Virus record (IMG/VR): IMGVR_UViG_3300031994_000596
Span: 1 to 20,087 of that record
Length of the DNA: 20,087 nucleotides
From: a virus
Direction: 5' to 3' (one strand)
The notes under the pieces were generated by a model, which saw only the letters and a program-made list of their open reading frames with translations, did no database searches and was not told where the DNA came from. Positions 553 through 17,525 of this stretch are shown here, piece after piece (position 1 is the first letter of the stretch; the number at the start of each line of letters is the position of its first letter). The position numbers and the translations under genes are program-made.

Positions 553-2391
553 GTGAATGACGAGAACGCGATCCTGACGTATTACCAGGGAATCCGGGAC
601 GGAAGCATCACGGTCGGCAAATGGATCCGGATGCTCTATGAGATCATCGTGGACGGCCTGGAAAACAAGCGCTGGTATTTTGACCAGCGGAAGGCGTCCA
701 ACGCGATCCGGTTCATGGAGCGATTCTGCCACCACAATAAGGGACCGCTCGCGCCGCAGCGGCTGACGCTGAGCCTGTGGGAGCGGGCGGCAATCAGCGA
801 CATCTTCGGCATCGTGGACGCGGACGGCCTCCGGCAGTTTACGGAGGTGCTGTGGGTCATCGGCAGGAAGCAGGGCAAGACGATCATTGCCGGCGGAGGC
901 ATCGGGACCTACATGGCATACGCGGCCGGGGAATACGGCAGCGAGATCTATTACCTGGCTCCGAAACTTGACCAGGCGGATCTGTGCTTCAGCGCGTTTC
1001 AATTCAACGTGGACAAGGAGCCGGATCTGCTGAAACGGACAAAGAGCACAAAGAGCCGGGGACTGTTCATCAAAGAGACGAACACGACGATCAAGAAGCT
1101 GCCGTTCACGGACCGGAAGAGCGACGGCTATAACCCGATGTTCTATGTGGCGGACGAAATCGCCAGCTGGCCGGGAGACAGGGGCCTGAAACAGTGGGAG
1201 GTCATGGTCTCCGGCACGGGCGCAAGGCGGGAGCCGCTGGGGCTCGCGATCAGCAGCGCCGGGTATGAGAACGACGGGATATTCGATGAGCTGTTCAAGC
1301 GCGGGACAGCTTTTTTGAATGGGAACAGCCGGGAACAGCACCTGTTGCCGCTGCTGTACATGATCGACGATCCGGAGAAGTGGGACGATATCAACGAACT
1401 CCGGAAGAGCCTGCCGGGCCTGGGCGAAAGCGTGAGCGTGAAGTTCATCCTGAAGGAGATCGACACGGCGCACGAAAGCCTGAGCAAAAAGACGGAGTTC
1501 CTGACGAAATACTGCAACATCAAGCAGAACAGCTCCGTGGCGTGGCTCAGCACGGAGACAATCCGGCGGAGCTTCAACATCGGGGACGGATTCGGGGAGA
1601 AGCTGAAGCTGATCACAAGCCCGAAGGGCGGATTCAGGACGCCGGAGGAGCATCAGGCGATGATCCGGACGGCGGAGGACGTCGGGCCGGATGGGCTCAG
1701 GTGGCAGATGGCCATGCGGAAAGCCGGGAAGATCACCGAAGAGGGAAACCGGTTGACGCTGGAGGATTTCAACGATTGCTACGGGCTGGCGGGAATCGAC
1801 CTTTCGCAGACGACGGACCTGACGGCCTGCTGCCTGCTGATCCAGCGCGGCGGAGTGGTCTACTACTTCGTGCGGTTCTTCATCCCCAGGGAAAAGGTGG
1901 AGGAAGCAACGGCGCGGGACGGACTGCCGTACAGGAAATACATCGAGCGCGGTTTCCTGATCGAGAGCGGGGACAACTTCGTGGATTATAACGATTGCTT
2001 CCGCTGGTACGCGGATCTGATCGAAAAGTATCACATTTACGTGATGCAGGTAGGCCTGGACAGGTACTGCGCACAATACCTGCAGGCGCAGATGGAGCGG
2101 TACGGGTTTCACTGCGACACGGTATTCCAGGGGACCAACCTGACCGGCGTGATCAATACGACGGAAGGCATGCTGAAGGACGGAACGCTGCAGTGCGCGG
2201 AGGATAACGACCTGATGAAGATTCATCTGCTCGACGCGGCGCTGAAGACGGAAGCGGAGACGAACCGGAAGAAGCTGATCAAGATAAGCAAGCGGGCGCA
2301 CGTGGACGGCGTGGCCTGCCTGCTGGATGCGATGTGCATGCGGGCAAACAAGTGGGAAGAGATGAAAAACCGTCTGAGAAATGAAAGGTGA
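553..2391 (+). CDS. terL: Terminase large subunit (Terminase_1 / HK97-like ATPase-nuclease)
   Basis: 612-aa ORF with a GTG start; no in-frame ATG exists between the upstream stop at 508-510 and 553. Walker A-like VIGRKQGKT, typical N-terminal ILTYYQGIRDGSITVGKWI, and a C-terminal nuclease-like region. Sits between terS and portal. Confidence 0.93.
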   Translation: MNDENAILTYYQGIRDGSITVGKWIRMLYEIIVDGLENKRWYFDQRKASNAIRFMERFCHHNKGPLAPQRLTLSLWERAAISDIFGIVDADGLRQFTEVLWVIGRKQGKTIIAGGGIGTYMAYAAGEYGSEIYYLAPKLDQADLCFSAFQFNVDKEPDLLKRTKSTKSRGLFIKETNTTIKKLPFTDRKSDGYNPMFYVADEIASWPGDRGLKQWEVMVSGTGARREPLGLAISSAGYENDGIFDELFKRGTAFLNGNSREQHLLPLLYMIDDPEKWDDINELRKSLPGLGESVSVKFILKEIDTAHESLSKKTEFLTKYCNIKQNSSVAWLSTETIRRSFNIGDGFGEKLKLITSPKGGFRTPEEHQAMIRTAEDVGPDGLRWQMAMRKAGKITEEGNRLTLEDFNDCYGLAGIDLSQTTDLTACCLLIQRGGVVYYFVRFFIPREKVEEATARDGLPYRKYIERGFLIESGDNFVDYNDCFRWYADLIEKYHIYVMQVGLDRYCAQYLQAQMERYGFHCDTVFQGTNLTGVINTTEGMLKDGTLQCAEDNDLMKIHLLDAALKTEAETNRKKLIKISKRAHVDGVACLLDAMCMRANKWEEMKNRLRNER

Positions 2392-2396
2392 AGCAC

Positions 2397-3656
2397 ATGA
2401 AAACAGGCAGAAGCGTCGGGATCAGAGGGCTGTTTGAGAGCATCTTCGGATGGAACAGGCCGAAGGAGATACAGAAAGGCATCGAAGGCTTTTACAAAAC
2501 GCTGACAGCCTACACGCCGGCCTTCACGTCGTGGGGCGGAGCTCTGTATGAGAGCGAGCTGATCCGTGCCGCGATCGACGCCATTGCCAGGCACGCGGGA
2601 AAGATGACGCTGGACATCCAGGGGACGGCGAATCCGAAGCTGAGATCGCGCCTGCGGTCGGGACCGAACGAATGGCAGACGATGTATCAGTTCGTATATC
2701 GCCTGGTCACGATCCTGGAAATGCAGAACAACGCCTTCATCGTGCCGGTGCTGGATTACAACGCGAAAGGCGACCTGGAGATCCGCGGATACTTCCCTGT
2801 CCTGCCAAGCCGGACGGAAGTGCTGGACGTGGACGGAGAGCCGTGGATGAAATACAGCTTCCGGGACGGACAGACCGGATACATCGAGATGGAGCGCGTC
2901 GGGATCCTGAACAAGTTCCAGTATGAGGACGATATCTTCGGGGAAGACAACCGGGCGCTGAACGCGACGATGGACCTGATCAACATGCAGCAGCAGGGGA
3001 TCAAGGAAGGAATCAAGAACGGCGCGACGTTCCGGTTTATGGCTCAGATGTCGAACTTTACCAGCCCGACGGACCTGGCAAAGGAGCGGGAACGGTTCAA
3101 CGCCCAGAACCTGCAGGGCGAAAGCGGAGGCCTGCTCCTGTGGCCGTATGAGTACAAGGATCCGAAGCAGATTGAGCAGAAGCCGTACGTCGTGGACGCG
3201 GACCAGATGAAGCTGATCCAGGAGAGCGTGTTCAACTACTTCGGCGTGAACATGGACGTGCTGCAGAACAAGGCCGTCGGAGACGACTGGGCGGCATTCT
3301 ATGACGGGAAGCTGGAGCCGATCGCCGTGCAGATCGGCGAAGCGATGACGCGGATGACATTCAGCCGGCGGGAGATCGCCCAGGGAAACATGGTCACCGT
3401 GAGCGCGAACCGGCTGCAGTACGCGAGCACAAAAGAGAAACTGGACGTCAGTTCCCAGATGGCGGACCGGGGCATCATGAACCGGAACGAGATCCGGGAG
3501 ATCTGGGGCCTGCCGCCGATCGAAGGCGGGGATATGTTCCTGGTCCGGGGTGAGTATAAGGATCCGGACGCGGAGAGTGTGACGGTCACGGAGGAAACTG
3601 AAGAAACTACGGAGGCCATCATCGAAACGGAGGGGAAAGACGATGCCGAAGAATGA
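2397..3656 (+). CDS. Portal protein, HK97 family
   Basis: About 419-aa ORF directly after terL. The ATG at 2397 has AAAGG 8 nt upstream; an in-frame GTG at 2388 overlaps the terL stop as an alternative start. Size, position and acidic C-terminal tail are typical of HK97-type portals. Confidence 0.9.
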   Translation: MKTGRSVGIRGLFESIFGWNRPKEIQKGIEGFYKTLTAYTPAFTSWGGALYESELIRAAIDAIARHAGKMTLDIQGTANPKLRSRLRSGPNEWQTMYQFVYRLVTILEMQNNAFIVPVLDYNAKGDLEIRGYFPVLPSRTEVLDVDGEPWMKYSFRDGQTGYIEMERVGILNKFQYEDDIFGEDNRALNATMDLINMQQQGIKEGIKNGATFRFMAQMSNFTSPTDLAKERERFNAQNLQGESGGLLLWPYEYKDPKQIEQKPYVVDADQMKLIQESVFNYFGVNMDVLQNKAVGDDWAAFYDGKLEPIAVQIGEAMTRMTFSRREIAQGNMVTVSANRLQYASTKEKLDVSSQMADRGIMNRNEIREIWGLPPIEGGDMFLVRGEYKDPDAESVTVTEETEETTEAIIETEGKDDAEE

Positions 3657-4279: not shown

Positions 4280-5491
4280 ATGGATTTCAATCTCGACGAA
4301 ATGAGCGTTGAAGAGCTGGACGAACTGCTGAAGAAGATCCAGGCGAAGCTGGAACAGCTGCAGGGTGAAGGCGAAGAACGCGAGGGCGAGGAAGGCGAAG
4401 CCGGCGAGGAACCGGTGGAGGGCCTGGACGAGCTGAGCGATGATCTCGATGAGCTGGAGCAGCTGATCGACGACATCGAGAGCCGGAAGGCAAAGATCAA
4501 CGCGAAGGCGGAGAAACGCTCGGCGCTGATCCGGAAGATTGCCGGCGGAGAAGCCGGAAAGAAGGTCAGAACCTTCGAACATCTGAACAAGGAGGAAAAA
4601 CCCATGGAAAATGAAAAACTGTACCGCTCTGCGTGGCTGAAGAACCTGCAGGGCAAGCCACTGAGCGCTGAAGAGCGCACTGCCCTGGCCAACGGATCCT
4701 ATGTGATCCCGCAGGAAACCATCAACAAGATCTACGGCGCGATGGAGCTGTATCCCTTGCTCAACGCCGTTGAGGTCATGCGGATCCCCGGCACCGTGAT
4801 CGTGCCCGTGGAAGGCACCGTGAACGATGCAGCCGTCGTGGCGATGGGCACCGCTGCCACCGATTCAGAAGACGCGATGGCCGAGGTCGCCCTGGGAACC
4901 TACAAGCTGATCAAGACCATCGAGATCACCGCGGACGTCGCCGCGATGGCGATCCCCGCCTTCGAGACCTGGCTGGTCGAGCGCCTGGCCAACAAGATCT
5001 TCCGTCTCGTGACCAAGAAGATCGCGTCCGGCTCCGGCTCCTCTGAGCCCACCGGCCTGACAAGCATCAGCGCCACCGATCAGACCTACACCAAGGCCGC
5101 GATTACCTTCACCGACATCCTGGCGATCATCGCGAAGCTGCCGACGGAGTACACGCCGAACGCCACCTTCGTCATGAGCCGGACAACGTTCTGGCAGAAC
5201 GTGCTGGCCGTGAAGGACAGCGACAACCGCCCGATCGTCGTGGCGGATGCCCAGAGCCCGGCGAAGTTCAACGTCATGGGATTCCCGGTCATCCTGGAAG
5301 ACGAAATCGGCACCGACATCATCTTCGGCGACCTGAAGGAAGGCTATGTCTGGAACTTCGGCAAGGACATCGACGTGGCCCGTGATGAGTCCGTCGGCTT
5401 CCGTTCCGGCAGCACCGTCTTCCGCGGCATGTGCCTGGGAGACGGCAAGCCCACCGGAGTCGGCCTGGTGCGCTACACAAAAGCCACCTGA
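4280..5491 (+). CDS. Major capsid protein, HK97 fold, with acidic coiled-coil N-terminal delta/scaffold domain
   Basis: 403 aa with GGAGG 7 nt upstream. The N-terminal roughly 110 aa is a highly acidic coiled coil (EGEEREGEEGEAGEE...DELEQLIDDIE). This is followed by a typical HK97-type body (LYPLLNAV...GTYKLIKTIEIT...FVMSRTTF...GFPVILED). No separate scaffold gene is present, consistent with the HK97 arrangement. Confidence 0.93.
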   Translation: MDFNLDEMSVEELDELLKKIQAKLEQLQGEGEEREGEEGEAGEEPVEGLDELSDDLDELEQLIDDIESRKAKINAKAEKRSALIRKIAGGEAGKKVRTFEHLNKEEKPMENEKLYRSAWLKNLQGKPLSAEERTALANGSYVIPQETINKIYGAMELYPLLNAVEVMRIPGTVIVPVEGTVNDAAVVAMGTAATDSEDAMAEVALGTYKLIKTIEITADVAAMAIPAFETWLVERLANKIFRLVTKKIASGSGSSEPTGLTSISATDQTYTKAAITFTDILAIIAKLPTEYTPNATFVMSRTTFWQNVLAVKDSDNRPIVVADAQSPAKFNVMGFPVILEDEIGTDIIFGDLKEGYVWNFGKDIDVARDESVGFRSGSTVFRGMCLGDGKPTGVGLVRYTKAT

Positions 5492-8877: not shown

Positions 8878-11073
8878 ATGGCGAACGACGGTACGATCGC
8901 GTCCAAACTGCAACTGGACGGAGAGCAGCAATACAAAAAAGCGCTGAATGACGCCTATCGTTCGCTGCGGGTGCTGCGGTCGGAACTGAAAGCGGAGACG
9001 GCGGAAATGGGCCGGAACGCGACAGCACAGGACAAGGCGAGGGCGAAGATGGCCAGCCTGCAGAAGCAGATCGCGGAGCAGCAGAAGGTCGTTAAGACGC
9101 TGGAGAAGGCGCTGGCAGACAGCAAAAAGGAATACGCCGACAATCAGGAAGTCCAGGACAAGTGGGCGGAGAAGCTGAACAAGGCCAGGGAAGCCCTGGC
9201 GAACATGCAGAACGCGCTGGGGCAGACACAGGATGACCTGTCGAAGTTCGGCAGCAGCATGAAGGAAGTCGCGAACAACAGCGGCGAAGCAATGCAGACG
9301 GTTGTCAGCTTCAATGACGCCATGAAGAGCATCGGGAGCATCGCCAGCGGCGTCGGGAGCAGCCTGAGCGGGATCTTCTCGGCGACGGTGGACACCATGA
9401 AGGACATGGTGGACGAAATGTTCAGCCTGATGAGCCAGGCATGGGCCGCGGCGGGCGACTGGCAGCAGATCCAAACGATCTGGGGCGGTGACCTGGAAAG
9501 CATTGAGCGGGTATATACGGCCATGAGCCTGCAGGGCATCGACGCCGGCGAAGTGACCAGCGGGATCCAGAAGTTCATTACAAACGTGCACAACGGAAAC
9601 AAAGACACAATGGCCGCACTGGAACAGCTCCACCTGTCGGAAAGCCAATTCTCGAGCCATTGGGATTTCTTTGTTGCCACGATGGACAAGGCGAGCATGT
9701 TCAAAGGAAATGAGGGATACAACCTCATGACGGCGCTGTTCGGGGACAAGAAGGGCGCAGGAATGACGGACATGCTGAGAAACTGGCGTGAAGCCATGAA
9801 CCGGTATCAGCAGGACGTCGAGGAAACAGGACTGGCGCTGTCGAGTCCGGAGATTGAGAAACTGGACACAGTGTCGCACAAAATCACGGAGATACAGGCA
9901 CTTTGGGAAACAATCAAGACGAACATCGGAGCGAAGCTGAGCGAAGTCCTGAATATCGACGAAAATGCGGAGAAAGTGCTGAACCTGCTCAGGGATGCAG
10001 GTGCAATATTAAACGGGAACGGTGACAGGAAAGAACTTGTAATAAAGCTGGAACAGGATATCCAGAGCCTGCTGACAAGCATATCAAACGCGCTGGGGAA
10101 TCTGAGCGGATTCCTGAAAGAGCTGGGCGGAGACCTGGAACAGAGCAAGAATCCGCTTGTCAGTTTTGTCGGGAAACTGATCAAGAGCCTGGGTGATATC
10201 CTGGACTGGATCAGCAAAAACAGCGGAACGATCATCGACTGGCTGAACAAACTGCTGCCGGTCATGGCGGCAAACAAGATCAGCGAGGCGACAACCGGGA
10301 AGGGCATCGGGGACTGGCTGACGGATATCATGAAGCTGGGGCTTGAGGTGAAGGTGCTCGGGAAGGTATTCGGAGCATCTGCCGGGGCGGCGGTCGGTGA
10401 GACAGCGGCGACGTTCGGAGCCGGTATCGGTGCGGCGATCATGAAAGCCGTGCCGGCGCTGGCATTCCTGGGGACGCTGTTGAATCCGTCAGCGACAAGC
10501 GACGAAACAGGAAACAACGACCTGCTGGATGAGAACGGGAGACTGACAAACGAAGCTATTCAATACGGATATTCACTGAATGATAAAGGTGAGCTTATTC
10601 CGCCGTGGGCAAACAACCAGGGAAGCGGATCGACTGCAGGAACAACTGGCGAACCGTCACCGATCAGCGCAACTGCAGCACAGCGGGCGGCGGCGGAAGA
10701 ATTCTGGGACGCACTGAGGCTGACAGGAGCAGCGGACAGTGACAAGTTGCTGGAGGCATTTGACGGAAACAAGGAAGTCGTCAGCAAGCTGAGCGAGCTG
10801 ATCATTGATCTGGGAGAGAGCGAGAACGGCAAAGGATGGGAAACATTCGAAGATCTGCCGTCGAACTGGTTTAACGAGATCAGCGGGGCGCTGAAGAACC
10901 TGACACAGGACAACTACAAAGGAGCAGGGCTGGAAGATCTGCCGGGGAAGATCGGGAGCGCGGTTGCCGGGGCGGTGAAGCTGGCACCGGTGAATATCAC
11001 CGTCAACGTGGACGGAGAGCCGATGTACAAGAAAGTCAACCAGTCGCTGGGCAGTCTGATGGCCAGGGCATAA
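8878..11073 (+). CDS. Tape measure protein
   Basis: 731 aa, the largest ORF in the tail module. It has an N-terminal coiled coil and Gly/Ala-rich hydrophobic segments (VFGASAGAAVGETAATFGAGIGAAIMKAVPALAFLG), with AAAGGAGAG RBS. Using the established figure of roughly 0.15 nm per residue, this predicts a tail of about 110 nm. Confidence 0.92.
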   Translation: MANDGTIASKLQLDGEQQYKKALNDAYRSLRVLRSELKAETAEMGRNATAQDKARAKMASLQKQIAEQQKVVKTLEKALADSKKEYADNQEVQDKWAEKLNKAREALANMQNALGQTQDDLSKFGSSMKEVANNSGEAMQTVVSFNDAMKSIGSIASGVGSSLSGIFSATVDTMKDMVDEMFSLMSQAWAAAGDWQQIQTIWGGDLESIERVYTAMSLQGIDAGEVTSGIQKFITNVHNGNKDTMAALEQLHLSESQFSSHWDFFVATMDKASMFKGNEGYNLMTALFGDKKGAGMTDMLRNWREAMNRYQQDVEETGLALSSPEIEKLDTVSHKITEIQALWETIKTNIGAKLSEVLNIDENAEKVLNLLRDAGAILNGNGDRKELVIKLEQDIQSLLTSISNALGNLSGFLKELGGDLEQSKNPLVSFVGKLIKSLGDILDWISKNSGTIIDWLNKLLPVMAANKISEATTGKGIGDWLTDIMKLGLEVKVLGKVFGASAGAAVGETAATFGAGIGAAIMKAVPALAFLGTLLNPSATSDETGNNDLLDENGRLTNEAIQYGYSLNDKGELIPPWANNQGSGSTAGTTGEPSPISATAAQRAAAEEFWDALRLTGAADSDKLLEAFDGNKEVVSKLSELIIDLGESENGKGWETFEDLPSNWFNEISGALKNLTQDNYKGAGLEDLPGKIGSAVAGAVKLAPVNITVNVDGEPMYKKVNQSLGSLMARA

Positions 11074-11085
11074 CGAGGTGAAAAG

Positions 11086-11868
11086 ATGAGAACGCGGATA
11101 TCTGTAGCGCTGAACGGAGCGGAACTGCACGCCATTGACGCGGCGATTGTGCTGCAGGGCGTGGATGAGGGCGCGGCGAGCTGGAACATCGCAACCGGGA
11201 ACAGGGCGGGAAACGACGGCCAGCACGTGAACGGCATAGAAAAGAGATACCGGGACGTGATCGTGAATTTCGCCATCGCGGAGAAAAGGGACTTGATCCG
11301 GCGGGCGAACATCATCCAGCAGGTATGCGGATGGGCGGCGGCTGGCGGAGACCTGACCGTCAGCTACCGGGACCGGCAGAAGCTGAGGGTGATGTGTGTA
11401 TCCCTGCCGGCGGTAAAGAGTCCGGACAAGTGGGCAGAGACATACAGCATCACTTTCCGGGCGTATCAGGTGCCGTTCTGGCAGAGCGTGGACGCGGAAA
11501 GCGCGGCCATCAGCGCGGGAACGAGCGGGAGCACATCGCTCCGGGTGAAGGAAACCGGCGGAGGGAAGCTGTGCTTCCAGGCGACAAACAGCAGCGGGAG
11601 TACGGTCAACACGGCATCCATCAGCGCGAACGGGAAGACGATCAGCTTTTCATCTCTGGGGCTCGCAAACGGGGAAAAGCTGATCGGAGACTATGATGAA
11701 AGAGACATCCAGCGACTAAGGATCCTGAACGGGAGCACATTCCGGAGCGTACTGGACAAGCGGACAGGCGCGGACGATATTCTGCTGAAGCAGGGCGGAA
11801 ACACAGTAAGCGTGAGCAGCGGGGCCGCGCTGAGCTGGAACGTCTATACATACGGGAGATGGGAATAA
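11086..11868 (+). CDS. Distal tail protein (Dit, siphovirus tail component)
   Basis: 260 aa immediately after the tape measure, in the canonical TMP-Dit-Tal order. Beta-rich sequence. Confidence 0.8.
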   Translation: MRTRISVALNGAELHAIDAAIVLQGVDEGAASWNIATGNRAGNDGQHVNGIEKRYRDVIVNFAIAEKRDLIRRANIIQQVCGWAAAGGDLTVSYRDRQKLRVMCVSLPAVKSPDKWAETYSITFRAYQVPFWQSVDAESAAISAGTSGSTSLRVKETGGGKLCFQATNSSGSTVNTASISANGKTISFSSLGLANGEKLIGDYDERDIQRLRILNGSTFRSVLDKRTGADDILLKQGGNTVSVSSGAALSWNVYTYGRWE

Positions 11869-13709
11869 TGAGAATGCCGCAGTTGCTGAGCGGGCACACG
11901 ATGACGCCGGCGGGGATCCTGAGGCCGGTAAGCATGCAGTTGAGCCTTAAGACGGACGGGCAGAGCACGGCAAGCATTGTCCTGGACAGCGAAAGCCCGG
12001 ATGTCGCGATCGGGGCATGGGTGCAGATCTGGGCACCGAATGGTGAGATGTGCGTGATGTACGTCAAGAACCGGAAAAAGGACTATGTTACCGGGAACCT
12101 GACGCTGACACTTGAGCATACCTTCGGATTGCTGGAAGAGATGGTCGTCTTCGGCGAGGTAACGGCGGAAACAATGAGCGGGACGACAGGAGCGACCACA
12201 TGCACGGTGTTCCAGGCGATTACATACCTGCTGAACCAGCAGACGGAGACGCTGTTCACGATGGCGGCGGCGGACTGCGACTTCAGCGACGCGCAGGGAT
12301 GGAAGTTTACCAACAGCGAAATTTACAGCGACCTGAACACGCTGACGGACGCGATCCAGAACTGTCAGTGGGAATTTAATCAGGAATCACTCCCGTGGGC
12401 GCTGAAATTAAAGGCGTGGCCGCTGGCGTCAACGATGGAGATGAGGCGGAACAGGAACCTGGAAACGCTGCAGATCACGTATGACCGGAGCGGAATGTAT
12501 ACGAGAGTCTATCCGACAGGGAAAAACAACCTGCATATAGACAGCGTAAACAATAATGTCTCATACATGGATCAGAACACGGGGATATACGGCGTGATCG
12601 CGAACGTGATCACGGACAGCACGATCAATAACGCGGGACTGCTGAAAGCATGGGCGCAGAAGCAGCTCGCCAGGAACAGCGTGCCGAAGGTGAGCGTGAG
12701 CATCAGCGGGTATGAGCTGAGCCAGGAAACCGGGGAGAGCCTGGATCGGCTGGTCATCGGACGTATGTGCCGAATCCCGCTGCCGGAATACGGGGAGACG
12801 GTCATGGAGCGGCTGAGCGAACTGACGTGGCGGGACTGCATCGCTCATCCGGAGGCTGTCACATGCACACTGGCCAATGAACTGAAGACCATCACCGGCG
12901 TACTGAATGAGAAAGCCCGCAGCGGAGGCGGAGGATCGAAAAAAGCGAATACGGAGCACGACTGTGAGCTGGAAGATGACGAGGTCAAAATCGAGGAGTT
13001 CGACAATTCAGATATCTGGATCAACAGGGACAACATCTGGGCGGTATGCGCTCAGTATGACGTCATCACGGACAGTACGGGAAAACATATCCGGCTGAAG
13101 AACGGCGCACTGCTGGAAATTAACAGGGACGGCGTATACCAGACGGTCGGGACGATCATCAGCGATCAGGATGCCTCTATCGGAGCGCTGGATACGTGGG
13201 TGGATACGTTTGAAGGATCGGCACTGTGGACGCAGCGGGACAACATCACGGGCGTCTGCGGTGAGTACGAAGTCGTATATTACACTGAATCAGGTGTCCG
13301 GAAGAAAAAACTGCGGATCAAAAACGGCACGGGCCTGGTCATGCAGCGGAATGGTGCTGACTTCGGCGTTTACGATAACGGAACGCTGACAGGCGGAATA
13401 TGTATATCAAAGATCAACTCTGACTCAGGGAATCCGATCTATTCTTCCAGGGTGGATCTGTCCGGATATGTCACGACAACGATGATGGAGAGTGCGTTCC
13501 AGGATATCCAGCAGGCGACGATCGGGCAGTTGACAGTATCAGGGAGCCTTTTCACGTTTGACGGGCATGATGTGGACTGGAAAAGCTACACGGCCAGATA
13601 CTGCACGCTGGGAGGTTCATACTCATATAAGGATGCGAACGGGAATGCACATACAGGGGCACTGGTAACAGGCCAGACAAACACAACACTGCATTATATG
13701 GGATATTAA
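11868..13709 (+). CDS. Tail-associated (Tal) / baseplate hub protein with prophage-tail-endopeptidase-like N-terminal domain and duplicated C-terminal module
   Basis: About 613 aa. The ATG at 11868 overlaps the Dit TAA and has GGGAG 9 nt upstream (the track start is 11859). The N-terminal 380 aa resemble the gp27-like Tal fold region of siphophages (ILRPV...LKTDGQSTASIVLD...VYPTGKNNLHI...ISGYELS). No lytic domain was recognised in the C-terminal part. Confidence 0.8.
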   Translation: MRMPQLLSGHTMTPAGILRPVSMQLSLKTDGQSTASIVLDSESPDVAIGAWVQIWAPNGEMCVMYVKNRKKDYVTGNLTLTLEHTFGLLEEMVVFGEVTAETMSGTTGATTCTVFQAITYLLNQQTETLFTMAAADCDFSDAQGWKFTNSEIYSDLNTLTDAIQNCQWEFNQESLPWALKLKAWPLASTMEMRRNRNLETLQITYDRSGMYTRVYPTGKNNLHIDSVNNNVSYMDQNTGIYGVIANVITDSTINNAGLLKAWAQKQLARNSVPKVSVSISGYELSQETGESLDRLVIGRMCRIPLPEYGETVMERLSELTWRDCIAHPEAVTCTLANELKTITGVLNEKARSGGGGSKKANTEHDCELEDDEVKIEEFDNSDIWINRDNIWAVCAQYDVITDSTGKHIRLKNGALLEINRDGVYQTVGTIISDQDASIGALDTWVDTFEGSALWTQRDNITGVCGEYEVVYYTESGVRKKKLRIKNGTGLVMQRNGADFGVYDNGTLTGGICISKINSDSGNPIYSSRVDLSGYVTTTMMESAFQDIQQATIGQLTVSGSLFTFDGHDVDWKSYTARYCTLGGSYSYKDANGNAHTGALVTGQTNTTLHYMGY

Positions 13710-13722
13710 AGGAGCGGGAAAG

Positions 13723-14067
13723 ATGGAGGACATCCGGAAAGTAGGAGATCTGACCGTAAATGACGGGAAAGGATTCATGGATAATGAGGGGCTGATCCAG
13801 TCTCTGATCGTCAATCTGAACGACCTGATAAAGTGCATGGCGGTCGGGCAGTATATCCAGTTTGCAGGGATCGTGGCGCAGATGGGGCAGAAGCTGGCCA
13901 ACCTTAAGAAGGGCGTCAGGAACGACAGAGAGGACATGGAAGAGCAAATCAAAGACCTGAAACGACTGAATAACGAGCTGGCTGAGAAGGCATTCGGCAT
14001 GCCGGCGGAGGACGGAGGTAAAGAGGATGGACCTGCTGTCAATCCCGAAGAAAAAGAAGGAATATAA
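13723..14067 (+). CDS. Hypothetical tail-tip module protein with coiled-coil C-terminus
   Basis: 114 aa with AAAGGAG RBS and codon usage like its neighbours. No recognisable family. Confidence 0.6.
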   Translation: MEDIRKVGDLTVNDGKGFMDNEGLIQSLIVNLNDLIKCMAVGQYIQFAGIVAQMGQKLANLKKGVRNDREDMEEQIKDLKRLNNELAEKAFGMPAEDGGKEDGPAVNPEEKEGI

Positions 14068-14338
14068 CTGCAAATTCGCCGCGCCGTCGATCCTGACGGG
14101 GCGCTTTGTTGCCTACATTCTCAGCGAGGATGAGGAGGAGATCCGGGAAACGCTGACGGATCCAGGGACGCTGATCGTTTACAACGAACACGTAGTCACG
14201 AAAGAATACAAAGGGTACAAACGGATTGATTCACTGGAAGCGCAGCGGGACGGCGGCTATATAGTGAAGCTGTCCGGAGACTCGGAAGAGACAGGATCGG
14301 AAACAAACGAGGAGGAGAACAGCCATGGCGAAAAATGA
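14027..14338 (+). CDS. Hypothetical tail-tip module protein with acidic C-terminus
   Basis: 103 aa with GGAGG 8 nt before the ATG at 14027. It overlaps the previous ORF by 41 nt and the fibre gene by 14 nt. Confidence 0.55.
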   Translation: MDLLSIPKKKKEYNCKFAAPSILTGRFVAYILSEDEEEIRETLTDPGTLIVYNEHVVTKEYKGYKRIDSLEAQRDGGYIVKLSGDSEETGSETNEEENSHGEK

Positions 14339-17192
14339 GAGATGGTTTGTATGTGACCTGAAAGAGGCGATTCAGGCGCAGGTGCTCAACGGTAATGTGT
14401 TCAGCATGGACAACAACGGGAGCCGGATCGGCGTCAAGATCTTTGACGGCGGTGAAAAGGCAACCGTATCAGGAGCCATCACGGCGAATTGCATCCTGCC
14501 GGACGGGAGCACGGTGAACGTGAACGGCACTCTGACAACCGTGGACGGGCAGAGCGTCGGCTATATCGATGTGCCTCAGAGCTGTCTTCTGATCACCGGC
14601 CCGCTGAAGATCACCATCAAGCTGACGGACTCCGGAGTGATAACAACGCTGGCAGCGATCCTCACGACGGTATACCAGACAAAGACGGACAACGTGATCA
14701 CTCCCAGCGCGCAGATCATCAATGACTGGAACGCGGAAATCTCCGCGGCGATCGCCACGCAGAACGCAGCCATCGCGAACCAGGACACGAAGATAAATGA
14801 TTTAAAGAGCGCATTAGATGTTAATCATATAACCGATATCGACCTTTATCGGAAGATTCTCGCAAACAAAACAGGCGATGATATTGTAGACCTCCCGCAA
14901 CAGAAAGGATCAAGTTCTGCGGATGGATGTGTTTACGATGGAAAATTCGCCATAAAAAAAGTCGAACCGTTAAATCATGAAATCTTATTTAATCTGCCTT
15001 GTACAAGTGGTAAAGAATATCTTGTAATTGCAAATTATATTGAACATAAATATGAGAACAACACATCAAACATTCAAATTCGCAATGGGTCAACAACTGT
15101 TCTGACATTTTCAAGTGCGGTAGACGGAAGGGTAAATGTCGCTATTGGTAAATTCACATCAGATGGCAGTTCAAAAATAAGACTTTGGAATACATATTAT
15201 GGATCAAGTGTATTCAAAATCTATGGTATCCATGTATTTGAACTGAAATCGGAACAGAATAATGATTATTTTCAAACGCAATACACAAACAAGGTTATTC
15301 CGATAACTGAATGGGAAGACGGTTCTATTACAGGAACAGGAGAAGAAAACGATACAACAGGCGAATACTATCACCGTACAGATTATATAGAGGTGTTCGC
15401 AGGAGCGCAATATTCAGCAAGACAAGGAAGTTTTTTCACTGTTAATTTATATGATCGTGACAAGGTTCATGTTTCTAAGATCGTAACACAAGCAGGAACT
15501 ACATCATTTACCATTTCCCAAAATGGCTATGTGCGAATTACGGCGTATAAGGCCAATGCGCTTGACGGGTTAAATGAAGTAATTTCTGAAGTTGTAGACT
15601 TTAATCGCAATTATAAAGACTTGAGCAATGTTGTTTATGATTACAATAAGACCGAAGCGGAAACAGAAGCAAGCATACAAAGAATTGACACAACGCTTTC
15701 TGACATAAACAGAACTGCGACATCTTCCACCAACGGATTGATGTCAGCAGAAGACAAGAGAAAATTAGACGGAATTATAAATCCGGGGTCTATTACAATC
15801 GAAGGAAGCGGAGTATACAAAAATGCTTCCGCATACAATTTTCTTCCCACAAATACAGCGGCGGCAAACTCAACGGCGTTGCAAAATGTTCTTAATGGAG
15901 GTGGGTATATTTTAGTTGACGTTCCGGGAACATATAAAATCTGTGCAAGTATAAAGATTGATTCAAATACGGATTTGGTTTTTGCACCGGGAGTCTATAT
16001 TGAACTTGAAAAGAACGGATCAAACCAGTGGCCGAGATATCCATTTATAAATTCTGGGGCATTTAGTAATGCACAAAATGAAAATATTACTATTCGGAAT
16101 CTTAATTTGATAACGAATGGATGCCCAATAGGTACGGATGTTGAAAAAATCTATGGGCAAAATGGATTTCTTGCTTTTAAGAAAATCAATCATCTCCATT
16201 TGGATGGAATCACTATATTGGATAGTGGAAGCGAAAACTATAACATTCACATACAGGAATTTAATGATGTTGTTGTTGAGAATGTTATCATCACAAGCGA
16301 AAAGGACGGTATACATTTCGGATCGGGTGAAAACTTTATAATCAGGCACTGTTTCTTGAAAACAAACGATGATGCAATCGCATTGAACGCCCATGATTAT
16401 CCCGGAGCAACGGCAAAACTTGGATGGATTAAAAACGGGATAATTGAAGATATTCATTTGCTTGCGGCTCCGAACTTTAATGCAAGCCGTGGCCTGTATT
16501 CCCTTGGTGGTTCGTGGGTTGATTGGGAATCCGGTATGTCTTTCAGAACATACGGGGATGCGGTTGCCAGCAACAATCGAATTTACCGGACAATGGGGAC
16601 AAGATCAAGTCAGAAACCTACATTGATTTCTACTGTTCAGCCAACGCATACATCAGGAACGCAGACGTATTCTGATGGCCTTACATGGTTAATGGCACAG
16701 GACACGGACATCGTGTACAACGTAGGGATTGAAAACGTTCATTATAAAGATATTTTTATTGAACGGGCATCCATTTGTGCTGTGTGCGTCAATTTTGACG
16801 ATGATGAATACAGCAGGAGTTATTATCCCGGATCAACGCCGCCACTGTGCAAAAACATTATGGTTGAAGATTTGCATATTATTGACGGCACTGCGGTTTC
16901 CTATCTTTTGTATGCACCTATGCCTGTCGATAATATGAAATTCAAGAATTGTGATTTCATAACATCATCACATATTCTCTATATTCCGAACGTTTACTCC
17001 GGTTTCCCGAAAGACAGGATTCTGATGGACGGAACCTGTTTCAGAACAACAGCATCTACTTGCAAGGTTGTTTCCGGTGGTGACAGAGATTGCGAAATAA
17101 AGATTGTAAACAGCTTCAAAAATGCCGGGACAACAATGTTTATTACCGGAACGAACGTTGATATATCTGTTAATGATATCGGAATTGATTAA
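14325..17192 (+). CDS. Receptor-binding tail fibre/spike: BppU-like N-terminal anchor plus right-handed beta-helix (pectate-lyase / GH28-like) polysaccharide depolymerase
   Basis: 955 aa with GAGGAGGAG RBS. The N-terminal roughly 155 aa (FSMDNNGSRIGVKIFDGG...ILPDGSTV...GPLKITIKL) resemble baseplate-upper-protein-type anchor domains. The fibre motif NGLMSAEDKRKLDGI follows. After it come beta-helix repeats: NITIRNLNLITNG, HLHLDGITILDS, VVVENVIITSEKDGIHFGSGENFIIRHCFLKTNDDAIALNAHD. Confidence 0.85.
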   Translation: MAKNERWFVCDLKEAIQAQVLNGNVFSMDNNGSRIGVKIFDGGEKATVSGAITANCILPDGSTVNVNGTLTTVDGQSVGYIDVPQSCLLITGPLKITIKLTDSGVITTLAAILTTVYQTKTDNVITPSAQIINDWNAEISAAIATQNAAIANQDTKINDLKSALDVNHITDIDLYRKILANKTGDDIVDLPQQKGSSSADGCVYDGKFAIKKVEPLNHEILFNLPCTSGKEYLVIANYIEHKYENNTSNIQIRNGSTTVLTFSSAVDGRVNVAIGKFTSDGSSKIRLWNTYYGSSVFKIYGIHVFELKSEQNNDYFQTQYTNKVIPITEWEDGSITGTGEENDTTGEYYHRTDYIEVFAGAQYSARQGSFFTVNLYDRDKVHVSKIVTQAGTTSFTISQNGYVRITAYKANALDGLNEVISEVVDFNRNYKDLSNVVYDYNKTEAETEASIQRIDTTLSDINRTATSSTNGLMSAEDKRKLDGIINPGSITIEGSGVYKNASAYNFLPTNTAAANSTALQNVLNGGGYILVDVPGTYKICASIKIDSNTDLVFAPGVYIELEKNGSNQWPRYPFINSGAFSNAQNENITIRNLNLITNGCPIGTDVEKIYGQNGFLAFKKINHLHLDGITILDSGSENYNIHIQEFNDVVVENVIITSEKDGIHFGSGENFIIRHCFLKTNDDAIALNAHDYPGATAKLGWIKNGIIEDIHLLAAPNFNASRGLYSLGGSWVDWESGMSFRTYGDAVASNNRIYRTMGTRSSQKPTLISTVQPTHTSGTQTYSDGLTWLMAQDTDIVYNVGIENVHYKDIFIERASICAVCVNFDDDEYSRSYYPGSTPPLCKNIMVEDLHIIDGTAVSYLLYAPMPVDNMKFKNCDFITSSHILYIPNVYSGFPKDRILMDGTCFRTTASTCKVVSGGDRDCEIKIVNSFKNAGTTMFITGTNVDISVNDIGID
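14780..14797 (+). repeat. Left copy of an imperfect 18-bp direct repeat at the GC-content breakpoint inside the fibre gene
   Basis: CCAGGACACGAAGATAAA matches CCAGGACGGGAAGATGAA at 17225-17242 at 15 of 18 positions. High-GC sequence ends here. Confidence 0.6.
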
Positions 17193-17224
17193 AAGTGACC
17201 TTTCGTTCGTTAACAATTTGAGTC

Positions 17225-17242
17225 CCAGGACGGGAAGATGAA
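17225..17242 (+). repeat. Right copy of the imperfect 18-bp direct repeat at the end of the low-GC block
   Basis: CCAGGACGGGAAGATGAA lies 33 nt after the fibre stop codon, where GC content rises again. Confidence 0.6.
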
Positions 17243-17243
17243 C

Positions 17244-17282
17244 AAAAAAAGAGGGAGCGGAGAATGTTCATCCGCTCCCTCT
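17244..17282 (-). terminator. Rho-independent terminator of the minus-strand small-gene operon (hairpin may also stop + strand fibre transcripts)
   Basis: A 12-bp stem, AGAGGGAGCGGA (17250-17261) with TCCGCTCCCTCT (17271-17282), and a 9-nt loop. On the minus strand it is followed by TTTTTTT (17250-17244). The + strand orientation has no U tract. Confidence 0.8.
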
Positions 17283-17287
17283 GGGAA

Positions 17288-17301
17288 CCAAACACAGGAG
17301 A
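17288..17301. repeat. Inverted repeat, left arm (CCAAACACAGGAGA)
   Basis: Exact reverse complement of 17679-17692. The match does not extend on either side. Confidence 0.9.
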
Positions 17302-17354
17302 GTTTCGCCGAATTTACGGAGTTTGTCACACGCTGTTGCCAGCGCGGGAGGCGA

Positions 17355-17525
17355 TCAACACACCTCACTGAAGTCGAATTCGGGTACTGCAGCCTTCAGG
17401 GTGTCGGTAAAGGTTGACGTGTCTACTATGCCAAGGGAAGCAAGGTTAAAGTCCGGGATGGGAATATCGCGAACAGATGCCAGGCTATCGATGAGTTCAG
17501 CAGTTTTTGCAGTCAGTTCCTTCAT
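17355..17525 (-). CDS. Hypothetical small acidic protein, 56 aa (MKELTAKTAELIDSLASVRDIPIPDFNLASLGIVDTSTFTDTLKAAVPEFDFSEVC)
   Basis: Below the ORF-track cutoff; translated by hand. GGAG lies 5 nt upstream of the ATG at 17525, with a TGA stop at 17357-17355. About 10 acidic versus 4 basic residues. It lies inside the inverted-repeat-bounded segment. Confidence 0.5.
   Translation of the reverse strand: MKELTAKTAELIDSLASVRDIPIPDFNLASLGIVDTSTFTDTLKAAVPEFDFSEVC

Follow-up and report, generated by a model that had tools for sequence, protein, structure and literature searches.

We analyzed a 20,087-nucleotide stretch of viral DNA (IMG/VR record IMGVR_UViG_3300031994_000596, positions 1 to 20,087; hereafter the window), in which a tail-fibre gene carries a long receptor-binding cassette of low G+C content (GC) behind a conserved N-terminal part. 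The window covers the late region of a temperate phage of siphovirus type, whose late operon lies on the plus strand. In the open reading frame (ORF) map and the family scans, this operon comprises genes for the terminase large subunit (553-2391), the capsid (4280-5491), the tape measure (8878-11073) and Tal (Prophage_tail; 11859-13709), a Dit-position gene (11086-11868) and a portal gene (2388-3656) that was assigned by position only. Two small plus-strand genes separate Tal from the fibre ORF (14325-17192, 955 amino acids; ORF map), which is followed on the minus strand by three small genes (17355-18125) and by a gene for a Xer-like tyrosine recombinase (18284-19297) that is convergent with the fibre. 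The plus strand resumes at 19509 with the start of an NlpC/P60-type endolysin gene (family scan), which continues past the end of the window at 20087.

Composition and fold of the fibre

The initial annotation, made from the sequence alone, had reported an abrupt drop in GC near 14790 within a single long fibre gene. The ORF was confirmed, and both 300-nucleotide windows and a codon profile bear the island out. Overall, GC drops from 0.55-0.60 to 0.32-0.45 between about 14800 and 17250. GC was 0.50-0.63 upstream of the island, 0.44 at 14701-15000, 0.32-0.45 across 14851-17250 and 0.53 again from 17251. At third codon positions, the G+C content (GC3) was 0.64-0.84 in the backbone genes and 0.76 in the first 477 nucleotides of the fibre gene, compared with 0.34 in its remainder. 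The compositional shift is a synonymous-site effect; TTA accounted for 2 of 275 leucine codons in the backbone (0.7%) and for 15 of 42 in the cassette (36%). Codons ending in A or T begin at about 14790, and the cassette itself (14819-17189) has a GC of 0.38 and a GC3 of 0.34.

The N-terminal anchor (14325-14789, plus strand) was modelled with AlphaFold as a beta-sandwich at residues 1-118 and a long alpha-helix from residue 129, with a predicted local distance difference test (pLDDT) score of 84.5. Foldseek matched this model to the N-terminal domain of TP901-1 ORF48/BppU (3uh8, 4v96) and to baseplate proteins of 80alpha and NF5 (6v8i and 9m8o among the matches), in both cases with E values of about 1e-6; no match of Pfam BppU_N to the anchor was found at E <= 0.01. 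The fibre gene sits after the Dit and Tal genes. According to the model, residues 1-158 would be a BppU-like anchor with a coiled-coil helix that fixes the fibre to the baseplate, and their composition is like that of the backbone.

The variable receptor-binding cassette (14819-17189, plus strand; residues 166-955) is set apart by its low GC. Its plus-strand architecture comprises N-proximal beta (beta-sandwich) domains upstream of a helical neck with a GLMSAEDKRKLDGI motif (about 15558-15776, covered by PHROG matches), followed by a right-handed beta-helix (about 15816-17189) that was recognized from the model, Foldseek and Pfam. The beta-helix was predicted confidently at cassette residues 340-795 (pLDDT 85-95). 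Its Foldseek matches were GH28 polygalacturonases, GH87 enzymes and phage tailspikes, the phage matches comprising CBA120 TSP3, HK620, phi29 gp12 and Klebsiella depolymerases; structures 5w6f, 2xc1, 8bke and 7w1c were among the matches. For the C-terminal 475 residues (481-955), Pfam GH28 scored 26.4 bits against a cut-off of 22.9 and Pect-lyase_RHGA_epim reached E = 8e-6, and a PDB sequence search returned weak matches to 2uve and 5olp. The stretches SEKDGIHF and TNDDAIALNA, read from the sequence, resemble the GH28 NTDG and G/QDD motifs and are taken as a lead only. Judged from this fold, the beta-helix most likely binds and cleaves host surface polysaccharide, and both domain calls of the initial annotation, an anchor and a beta-helix depolymerase, are backed by fold.

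It was also noted that the neck contains a motif, ATSSTNGLMSAEDKRKLDGI, at 15700-15790 (fibre residues 460-486). Over about 50 amino acids this region shares 43-56% identity with 600-residue proteins matching the phi29 head-fibre family PF11133, and the motif is common to two PHROGs of unknown function.

Alternative cassettes and their conserved flanks

Relatives are given here as numbered loci (L); those of the recombinase family came from IMG/VR viral contigs and from ENA, JGI and Logan metagenome assemblies, some of them rumen-type or human faecal. The anchor relatives in metagenome loci were obtained only with an alignment query; as a single-sequence query against IMG/VR and GTDB genomes, the anchor returned nothing. 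Nothing was found either by blastn of 11000-18300 against cultured phage genomes, by an exact-product look-up of the window fibre (P0012), by an IMG/VR scan for the junction DNA pattern or by a single-sequence scan with the recombinase.

The two halves of the fibre, searched separately, gave disjoint sets of homologues, as expected of the proposed chimera of a conserved anchor and a replaceable module. One anchor is combined with many alternative modules, and in L001 the window module is joined to a different anchor. Proteins with the N-terminal 160 residues (about 70% identity) diverge completely just past a ...QDxxIxDLKSAL motif. In L005-L011, L025 and L115, DNA homology to the window begins at the start codon and breaks off at 14812-14820; the anchor DNA is 65-79% identical in L005-L011 and L025, all of which have other C-termini. 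At least 17 distinct continuations were counted after this hinge on the window-type anchor. GC before the hinge was 0.49-0.63 in the relatives, and over the 600 nucleotides past the hinge it was 0.36-0.42 on window-type anchors and 0.48-0.49 in L020 and L021. GC3 of the relatives was measured only in L006, L007 and L009, where the cassettes had 0.28-0.36 compared with 0.62-0.66 before the hinge.

The window cassette recurs in L001 with 81% amino acid identity on a heterologous anchor, which is distantly similar in protein alignment and has an extra insert with a faint CBM5/12 match. The similarity between the two cassettes begins at ...LSSLKSAF (xLKSAx) and stops 14 nucleotides past the stop codon, at 17206, and the same GC drop was seen in L001. 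Identity is uneven along the cassette. A plus-strand sub-module at 16337-17206 shares 87-98% DNA identity with L001, compared with 65-76% over 14865-16336, and has a GC3 of 0.41 compared with 0.29-0.30 upstream. Because identity to L001 jumps at 16337, the cassette is itself mosaic, and this position marks a second, more recent exchange inside it.

The transfer had been called recent, which does not agree with these comparisons: low GC is common to the cassettes of all relatives, and the nearest copy, in L001, has only 65-76% DNA identity to the window cassette over the first two-thirds. A 38%-identical homologue of the cassette was found in the L113 prophage, where whole-prophage GC is 0.38 and gene GC3 is 0.23-0.45, and which encodes a ChW-amidase endolysin. 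Because L113 is uniformly low in GC and holds a homologue, a low-GC phage pool for the module exists, and low-GC phages would be the reservoir of the cassettes. One locus, P0001/L115, was considered as an empty site without a cassette and was rejected, as it is a split arrangement. In L115:1045-3347, the first ORF consists of the anchor, the hinge and a 26-residue tail, and a separate gene of at least 568 codons encodes a beta-helix-like receptor-binding protein (RBP).

The switch from constant to variable sequence falls at an 11-mer, TTAAAGAGCGC (14802-14812, plus strand), which encodes L-K-S-A in frame. It occurs exactly once in the window and exactly once in each of L005, L006, L007, L009, L115, L020, L021, L022, L025 and L026, always at the switch point, in loci that span 5-6 different anchor types; L022, L025 and L026 were retrieved via the recombinase and not via the fibre. 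About 0.6 matches would be expected by chance in all the loci searched (1.3 Mb, or 2.6 Mb over both strands). One-nucleotide variants of the 11-mer occur in L001, L008 and L110, and L020 and L021, which share an anchor, differ from the 11-mer onward.

Within one anchor type, the hinge is the end of a longer 5' homology arm (14690-14818, plus strand) formed by the last 130 or so nucleotides of the anchor helix and the hinge, which is near-identical among relatives. Compared with L006, L007 and L009, the window is 63-72% identical at 14325-14684, 82-88% at 14685-14744 and 98-100% at 14745-14818, and past 14818 there is no similarity. Such a gradient reads as the signature of homologous exchange tracts and not of a fixed crossover point.

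At the other end of the cassette lies a conserved 3' junction element, ATTGATTAAAAGTGACCTTTCGTTCGTTAACAATTTGAG (17184-17224, plus strand), an imperfect palindrome that is kept behind cassettes unrelated to one another. Its sequence, ATTGATTAAAAGTGACCTTT..TTAACAATTTG, overlaps the stop codon, which in several loci comes from the element itself. A TAA(A)AGTGACC core stands directly past the stop in the window, L006, L007 and L022 despite their unrelated cassettes, close variants of TAA(A)AGTGACC(TTT) were found in L001, L009 and L110, and L025 and L026 retain only TTAAAGG of the element. TTAAAG follows the stop in 8 of 9 loci, and those 3' elements are mutually homologous. The TTAACAATTTG part is confined to recombinase-bearing loci. 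The window and L022-L024 are 97% identical over 17184-20087 and unrelated before 17184, where L022-L024 have an unrelated tail and a 1237-residue fibre. The two junction cores, TGATTTAAAGAG and TGATTAAAAGTG, are alike in 10 of 12 positions, with a chance of about 0.03.

Two further arrangements of the 3' element were noted. In L007 (3560-3592) it reads ATTGATTAAA-AGTGACC-TTTAAATCAAT, a dif-like geometry with 10-11-bp arms around the 7-bp spacer AGTGACC; L007 is without a recombinase at this element, and in the window element (17184-17224) the right arm is shifted by about 10 extra nucleotides. In L022 (12080-12480, minus strand of the locus), three tandem copies of TAA(A/T)GTGACC stand behind the 1237-residue fibre. 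The first copy follows a spacer of about 50 nucleotides past the fibre stop, and the second and third each follow a mini-ORF (a 39-residue Cys-rich and a 32-residue Lys/Glu-rich peptide, respectively). The tandem cores look like stacked mini-cassettes or the scars of repeated exchange.

Routes of exchange and the neighbouring recombinase

From these comparisons, the low-GC cassette was probably acquired by modular exchange through homologous or short-homology recombination at conserved flanks, a pathway that we infer and that the graded identity of the arm favours. The cassette would be one member of a mobile pool of receptor-binding modules with a low GC3 (about 0.3) that crosses backbones and anchors, and it would have been grafted onto the BppU-type anchor of the window by recombination in two conserved flanks. 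The 5' flank would be the hinge-coding sequence with its TTAAAGAGCGC core, from ...INDLKSAL (about 14790/14802), and within one anchor type the homogenised upstream arm of about 75-130 nucleotides would serve as well. On the 3' side, recombination would fall in the element of about 40 nucleotides at the stop codon, which this element overlaps and often provides, or in the conserved genes farther downstream. Homologous recombination, either general or of the phage-encoded "relaxed" kind, may act when phages co-infect a cell or superinfect a lysogen, and the Xer-like gene and its cargo slot would be an accessory module between fibre and endolysin.

Several observations weigh against modular exchange by homology. 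No recombination event was directly observed for this phage, and no near-identical low-GC donor came to light. Different anchor types have only 11-15 nucleotides of 5' sequence in common, a short tract for RecA-type recombination. That a TTA-containing 11-mer is kept exactly in GC3-rich genes suggests DNA-level constraint, which plain homologous recombination would not call for. Finally, a recombinase of an invertase family lies physically linked with the fibre in the window, L022-L024, L025, L026 and L110/L111.

The recombinase has 334-337 residues and matches Pfam Phage_integrase at E = 3e-36; its best NCBIfam matches are XerA, XerC and XerD, all under the family cut-offs. It has 1133 relatives at E <= 1e-20, and the gene always lies between tail or fibre genes and lysis genes. 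In alignment A4 the R, K, H, R, H and Y columns do not vary and are read as putative catalytic residues, an extra stretch of about 65 residues is conserved at the N-terminus, and the gene has its own terminator (18271-18245). Its position between fibre and endolysin differs from the lambda-type layout of a sole integrase next to a repressor and attP, and the enzyme is a second, Xer-like recombinase and not the prophage integrase. In L022, which has the 97%-identical module, the phage also encodes a 561-residue serine recombinase beside a cI-like helix-turn-helix (HTH) gene, and L027 and L028 have a lambda-type integrase in addition to the recombinase. Large serine recombinases of 527-561 residues were noted beside the holin/lysis module of phages with the window-type recombinase module, in L022 (6307-7992), L026 (4153-5751) and L112 (576-2159), with the cI-like HTH gene adjoining in L022 and also in L026. 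Such a large serine recombinase is probably the true prophage integrase and would lie beyond the end of the window. No tRNAs or Rfam families were found in the window, so that no tRNA-type attachment site is evident in it.

Relatives of the recombinase carry recurrent sites of their own. In a clade with 50-61% identity, a 12-nucleotide site, GTTAAACAGCAA (GT(T/A)AAACAGCAA), lies in frame in the tail gene (..LNSN/K), and inverted copies occur 33-1421 nucleotides past the recombinase stop in ten loci (L027, L033, L037, L039, L040, L041, L043, L044, L046 and L047), with two silent sites in L043. Comparison of L039 (8014-8756) and L040 (8014-8877) revealed an inverted segment of 364 nucleotides between the sites, 99.7% identical. 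A distant clade (37-38% identity) has a recurrent perfect inverted repeat, (C)TTAATGAATTAAAT, located 200-1000 nucleotides upstream of the recombinase start in L060-L095 (about 15 loci), which suggests another inversion system with a clade-specific site. From the sister-clade sites, the natural L039/L040 inversion and the distant-clade repeat, it follows that the family behaves as tail-fibre invertases, like Rin.

These findings bear on an alternative that we consider possible and on balance unlikely, in which the hinge TTAAAGAGCGC is the crossover site of the neighbouring recombinase and the window is the product of site-specific exchange or the relic of a shufflon. The system could be a decayed Rin-type shufflon whose silent C-terminal segments were lost, or the recombinase could join the hinge sites of two co-resident phage genomes and swap cassettes precisely in frame, possibly with the palindromic 3' element as the second site. 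The sister-clade site in frame at the equivalent tail-gene hinge with inverted copies beside the recombinase, the inverted L039/L040 segment and the distant clade with its own inverted repeat all favour this explanation, as do the likeness of the site cores TTAAAGAGC and TTAAACAGC (8 of 9 positions), the persistence of the 11-mer at synonymous positions over 5-6 anchor types, and the fibre-recombinase linkage with putative catalytic columns intact. Rin, moreover, has one site within the RBP gene and a directly oriented one just past its stop (PMC6109161), and the junction cores here agree at 10 of 12; that likeness decides nothing at a chance of about 0.03.

Against site-specific exchange, the hinge 11-mer is single-copy, without inverted copy or silent cassettes. 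With up to one mismatch, TTAAAGAGCGC occurs once in the whole 20-kb window on either strand, with no inverted copy, and no second copy was found with up to two mismatches within 5.5 kb of the window recombinase. In L022, L025 and L026 it also occurs only once within 5.5 kb of the recombinase at up to one mismatch, and the extra two-mismatch matches are all on the strand of the fibre, none inverted. No match to the sister-clade site was found in the window with up to three mismatches. Between the fibre stop and the recombinase there are no silent C-terminal segments and no ORFs resembling receptor-binding domains, only the three small genes. The window and L022-L024 are collinear over 17184-20087, and no inversion variants were seen. 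A perfect hinge is present in L006 and L007 without a recombinase between fibre and endolysin; the endolysin follows directly past the fibre in L006, and a small holin-like gene lies between them in L007. The homogenised upstream arm of about 100 nucleotides points to variable crossover points.

A broader version, which we regard as quite unlikely, would make TTAAAGAGCGC the dedicated site of the fibre-linked recombinase, serving shufflon inversions and, when single, intermolecular cassette swaps, with the 3' palindrome as a second socket. Two related arrangements were considered and rejected. A Mu-like invertible C-terminus in the window found no inverted hinge copy, and inverted repeats touching the fibre were at chance level. 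Insertion of the recombinase module into the palindromic 3' element, flanked on each side by TTTGAG, is speculation, as its flanks matched no empty site.

It is very unlikely that the low GC arose in place, kept by codon or translation-speed selection for beta-helix folding or by a local mutational bias. All alternative cassettes of the relatives are low in GC whatever their fold, and the window and L001 copies, both in high-GC backbones and diverged by 25-35% in DNA, are both still low in GC, as such a bias would have it. However, the shift is abrupt, within about 10 nucleotides, and coincides with the homology breakpoint, the halves of the fibre have different relatives, and a homologous cassette occurs in a uniformly low-GC phage. 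We know of no mechanism that confines AT bias to one gene segment, which also counts against this explanation.

The initial annotation had attributed the cassette to recombination at an imperfect 18-bp direct repeat. The repeat is indeed present, with CCAGGACACGAAGATAAA at 14780-14797 (plus strand, encoding NQDTKIN, inside the conserved arm) and CCAGGACGGGAAGATGAA at 17225-17242 (plus strand, in the spacer between the 3' element and a minus-strand terminator) identical at 15 of 18 positions, and its degenerate pattern has just these two matches in the window. It is not the boundary of the cassette, as homology ends elsewhere. The 5' copy, within which the AT-ending codons begin, lies 5-20 nucleotides upstream of the real switch, and the 3' copy lies 19 nucleotides past the end of the L001 cassette homology (17206). 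A 15/18 match was obtained in 0.9% (+/-50 nucleotides) to 3.9% (+/-100 nucleotides) of real pairs of windows from this sequence, and its significance is marginal because the boundaries were picked by eye. In L006, L007 and L009 only the 5' copy is present, with 3' flanks matching at best at 10-11 of 18 positions; L022-L024 have only the 3' copy, identical, and fibres without the 5' copy; and in L110 the homologous 3' stretch has drifted to 10 of 18. The same repeat was not found at both ends of each alternative cassette in the relatives, and the true junctions lie elsewhere. Given the independent histories of its two copies, the repeat is best read as coincidence, and it would play no part in an exchange at the conserved flanks, each copy belonging to a separately inherited segment. 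A longer, gapped version of the repeat (about 23 of 32 by hand count) was discarded, as the extra matches are the A-run of the terminator and of low complexity.

Insertion or excision via these repeats is extremely improbable: it has a boundary-window chance of about 0.01-0.04 in its favour, and against it stand a 5' copy that is conserved anchor coding sequence, a 3' copy that travels with the downstream module into L022-L024, and relatives in which other cassettes lack the 3' copy.

Related systems and the spacer downstream of the fibre

Both the exchange of RBP modules and fibre tips of low GC are familiar from other phages, and for that reason the finding is in itself ordinary. Tailspikes and depolymerases are swapped on conserved N-terminal adaptors in Klebsiella, Acinetobacter, P22-like and CBA120-like phages, and a host-specificity gene of Streptococcus thermophilus phages reportedly has conserved repeats flanking its variable region. 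The window fibre resembles TP901-1 BppU/BppL in its BppU-fold N-terminal baseplate anchor and in the position of the gene after Dit and Tal, and it resembles the modular siphophage RBPs of Gram-positive hosts in that the C-terminal specificity part is exchanged at conserved flanks. Unlike the TP901-1 and S. thermophilus systems, anchor and receptor-binding domain are here in one polypeptide with a large tailspike-like beta-helix tip, the 5' junction is a single 11-nucleotide core common to several unrelated anchors, and all cassettes are far below the backbone in GC. With the tailspikes it shares a beta-helix, glycanase-like domain on a conserved particle-binding N-terminus that is horizontally exchangeable; unlike them, it has another anchor fold, a siphovirus baseplate, a putative host of Gram-positive type and an activity that is predicted.

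Host-range switching by tyrosine-recombinase shufflons has also been noted in Eggerthella lenta prophages. As with Gin of Mu, Cin of P1 and Min of p15B, which serve host-range switching, the recombinase gene stands beside the variable 3' part of a tail-fibre gene; those enzymes are serine invertases with an enhancer and Fis, whereas here a tyrosine recombinase is found without an invertible fibre segment. The closest comparison is with the Rin shufflon of Bifidobacterium prophages, in which a tyrosine recombinase switches the RBP (Mavrich et al. 2018, PMC6109161). In both systems the RBP gene is flanked by a Xer-like tyrosine recombinase other than the prophage integrase, and an in-frame site lies at the constant/variable junction. 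Rin has its directly oriented site past the stop (PMC6109161). The complete shufflon arrangement, with a natural inversion, is seen in sister clades of the window recombinase. The window differs from Rin in that a single hinge site stands without silent Rv segments or inverted sites, the recombinase has the extra conserved N-terminal stretch of about 65 residues, and the hinge site is unrelated to rix (TTCCCTAACCC).

The 11-nucleotide hinge across unrelated anchors, the stop-overlapping 3' element and the uniform low-GC3 cassette pool appear to be undescribed, as does the membership of the neighbouring "integrase" in a large Rin-like invertase family. Such modules set the host range of uncultured phages. 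The hinge and 3' element provide a nucleotide-precise, in-frame swap point and a 3' boundary common to several unrelated anchors, with a pool of at least 17 natural cassettes, and the swap point is usable for the engineering of chimeric receptor-binding proteins and for the prediction of host-range shifts from metagenomes. In annotation, the "integrase" beside many tail-fibre genes of these prophages should be corrected to a second recombinase of the invertase family, and shufflon-type switching by tyrosine recombinases appears to be common in rumen-type and human faecal metagenome phages. If the hinge is the target of the recombinase, phages would be exchanging modules by a new mechanism, in effect a site-specific "plug-and-socket" arrangement through which unrelated phages swap host-range modules.

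A cultured representative of the two-"integrase" synteny was noted in Terrisporobacter phage TPELB_ph1 (PP197244.1, 17645-22112), in which the tail genes are followed by a 331-residue "integrase" (35% identity to the window recombinase), a holin, an endolysin and a 527-residue "integrase". This phage could serve as an experimental model.

The contents of the cargo slot between the recombinase terminator and the 3' element (window 17225-18235) vary among phages: three small genes in the window and L022, a HicA/HicB toxin-antitoxin pair in L110 (3965-4958) and L111, and nothing in L025 (5905-6017). In the window, the minus-strand genes of 56 (17355-17525), about 67 (17700-17903) and 45 (17988-18125) amino acids were taken from the ORF map, each with its own ribosome-binding site and start codon; a family search on the three returned no matches. 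A promoter-like site was noted on the minus strand at 18195-18167, and the small-ORF operon ends in a terminator hairpin (17250-17282, minus strand, read from the sequence) with an 11-bp G+C-rich stem followed by T7, which is kept in L022 and L110. The first of these genes lies within 377 nucleotides enclosed by a perfect 14-nucleotide inverted repeat, CCAAACACAGGAGA (17288-17301 and 17679-17692), the sole perfect inverted repeat of at least 14 nucleotides (gap 30-1000 nucleotides) in the window. The probability of such a repeat arising by chance is about 0.0025 in the 1.09-kb spacer and about 0.05 in the window as a whole. The repeat is also present in L022-L024 in the same orientation as in the window, and the segment that it bounds could be a candidate invertible on/off segment.

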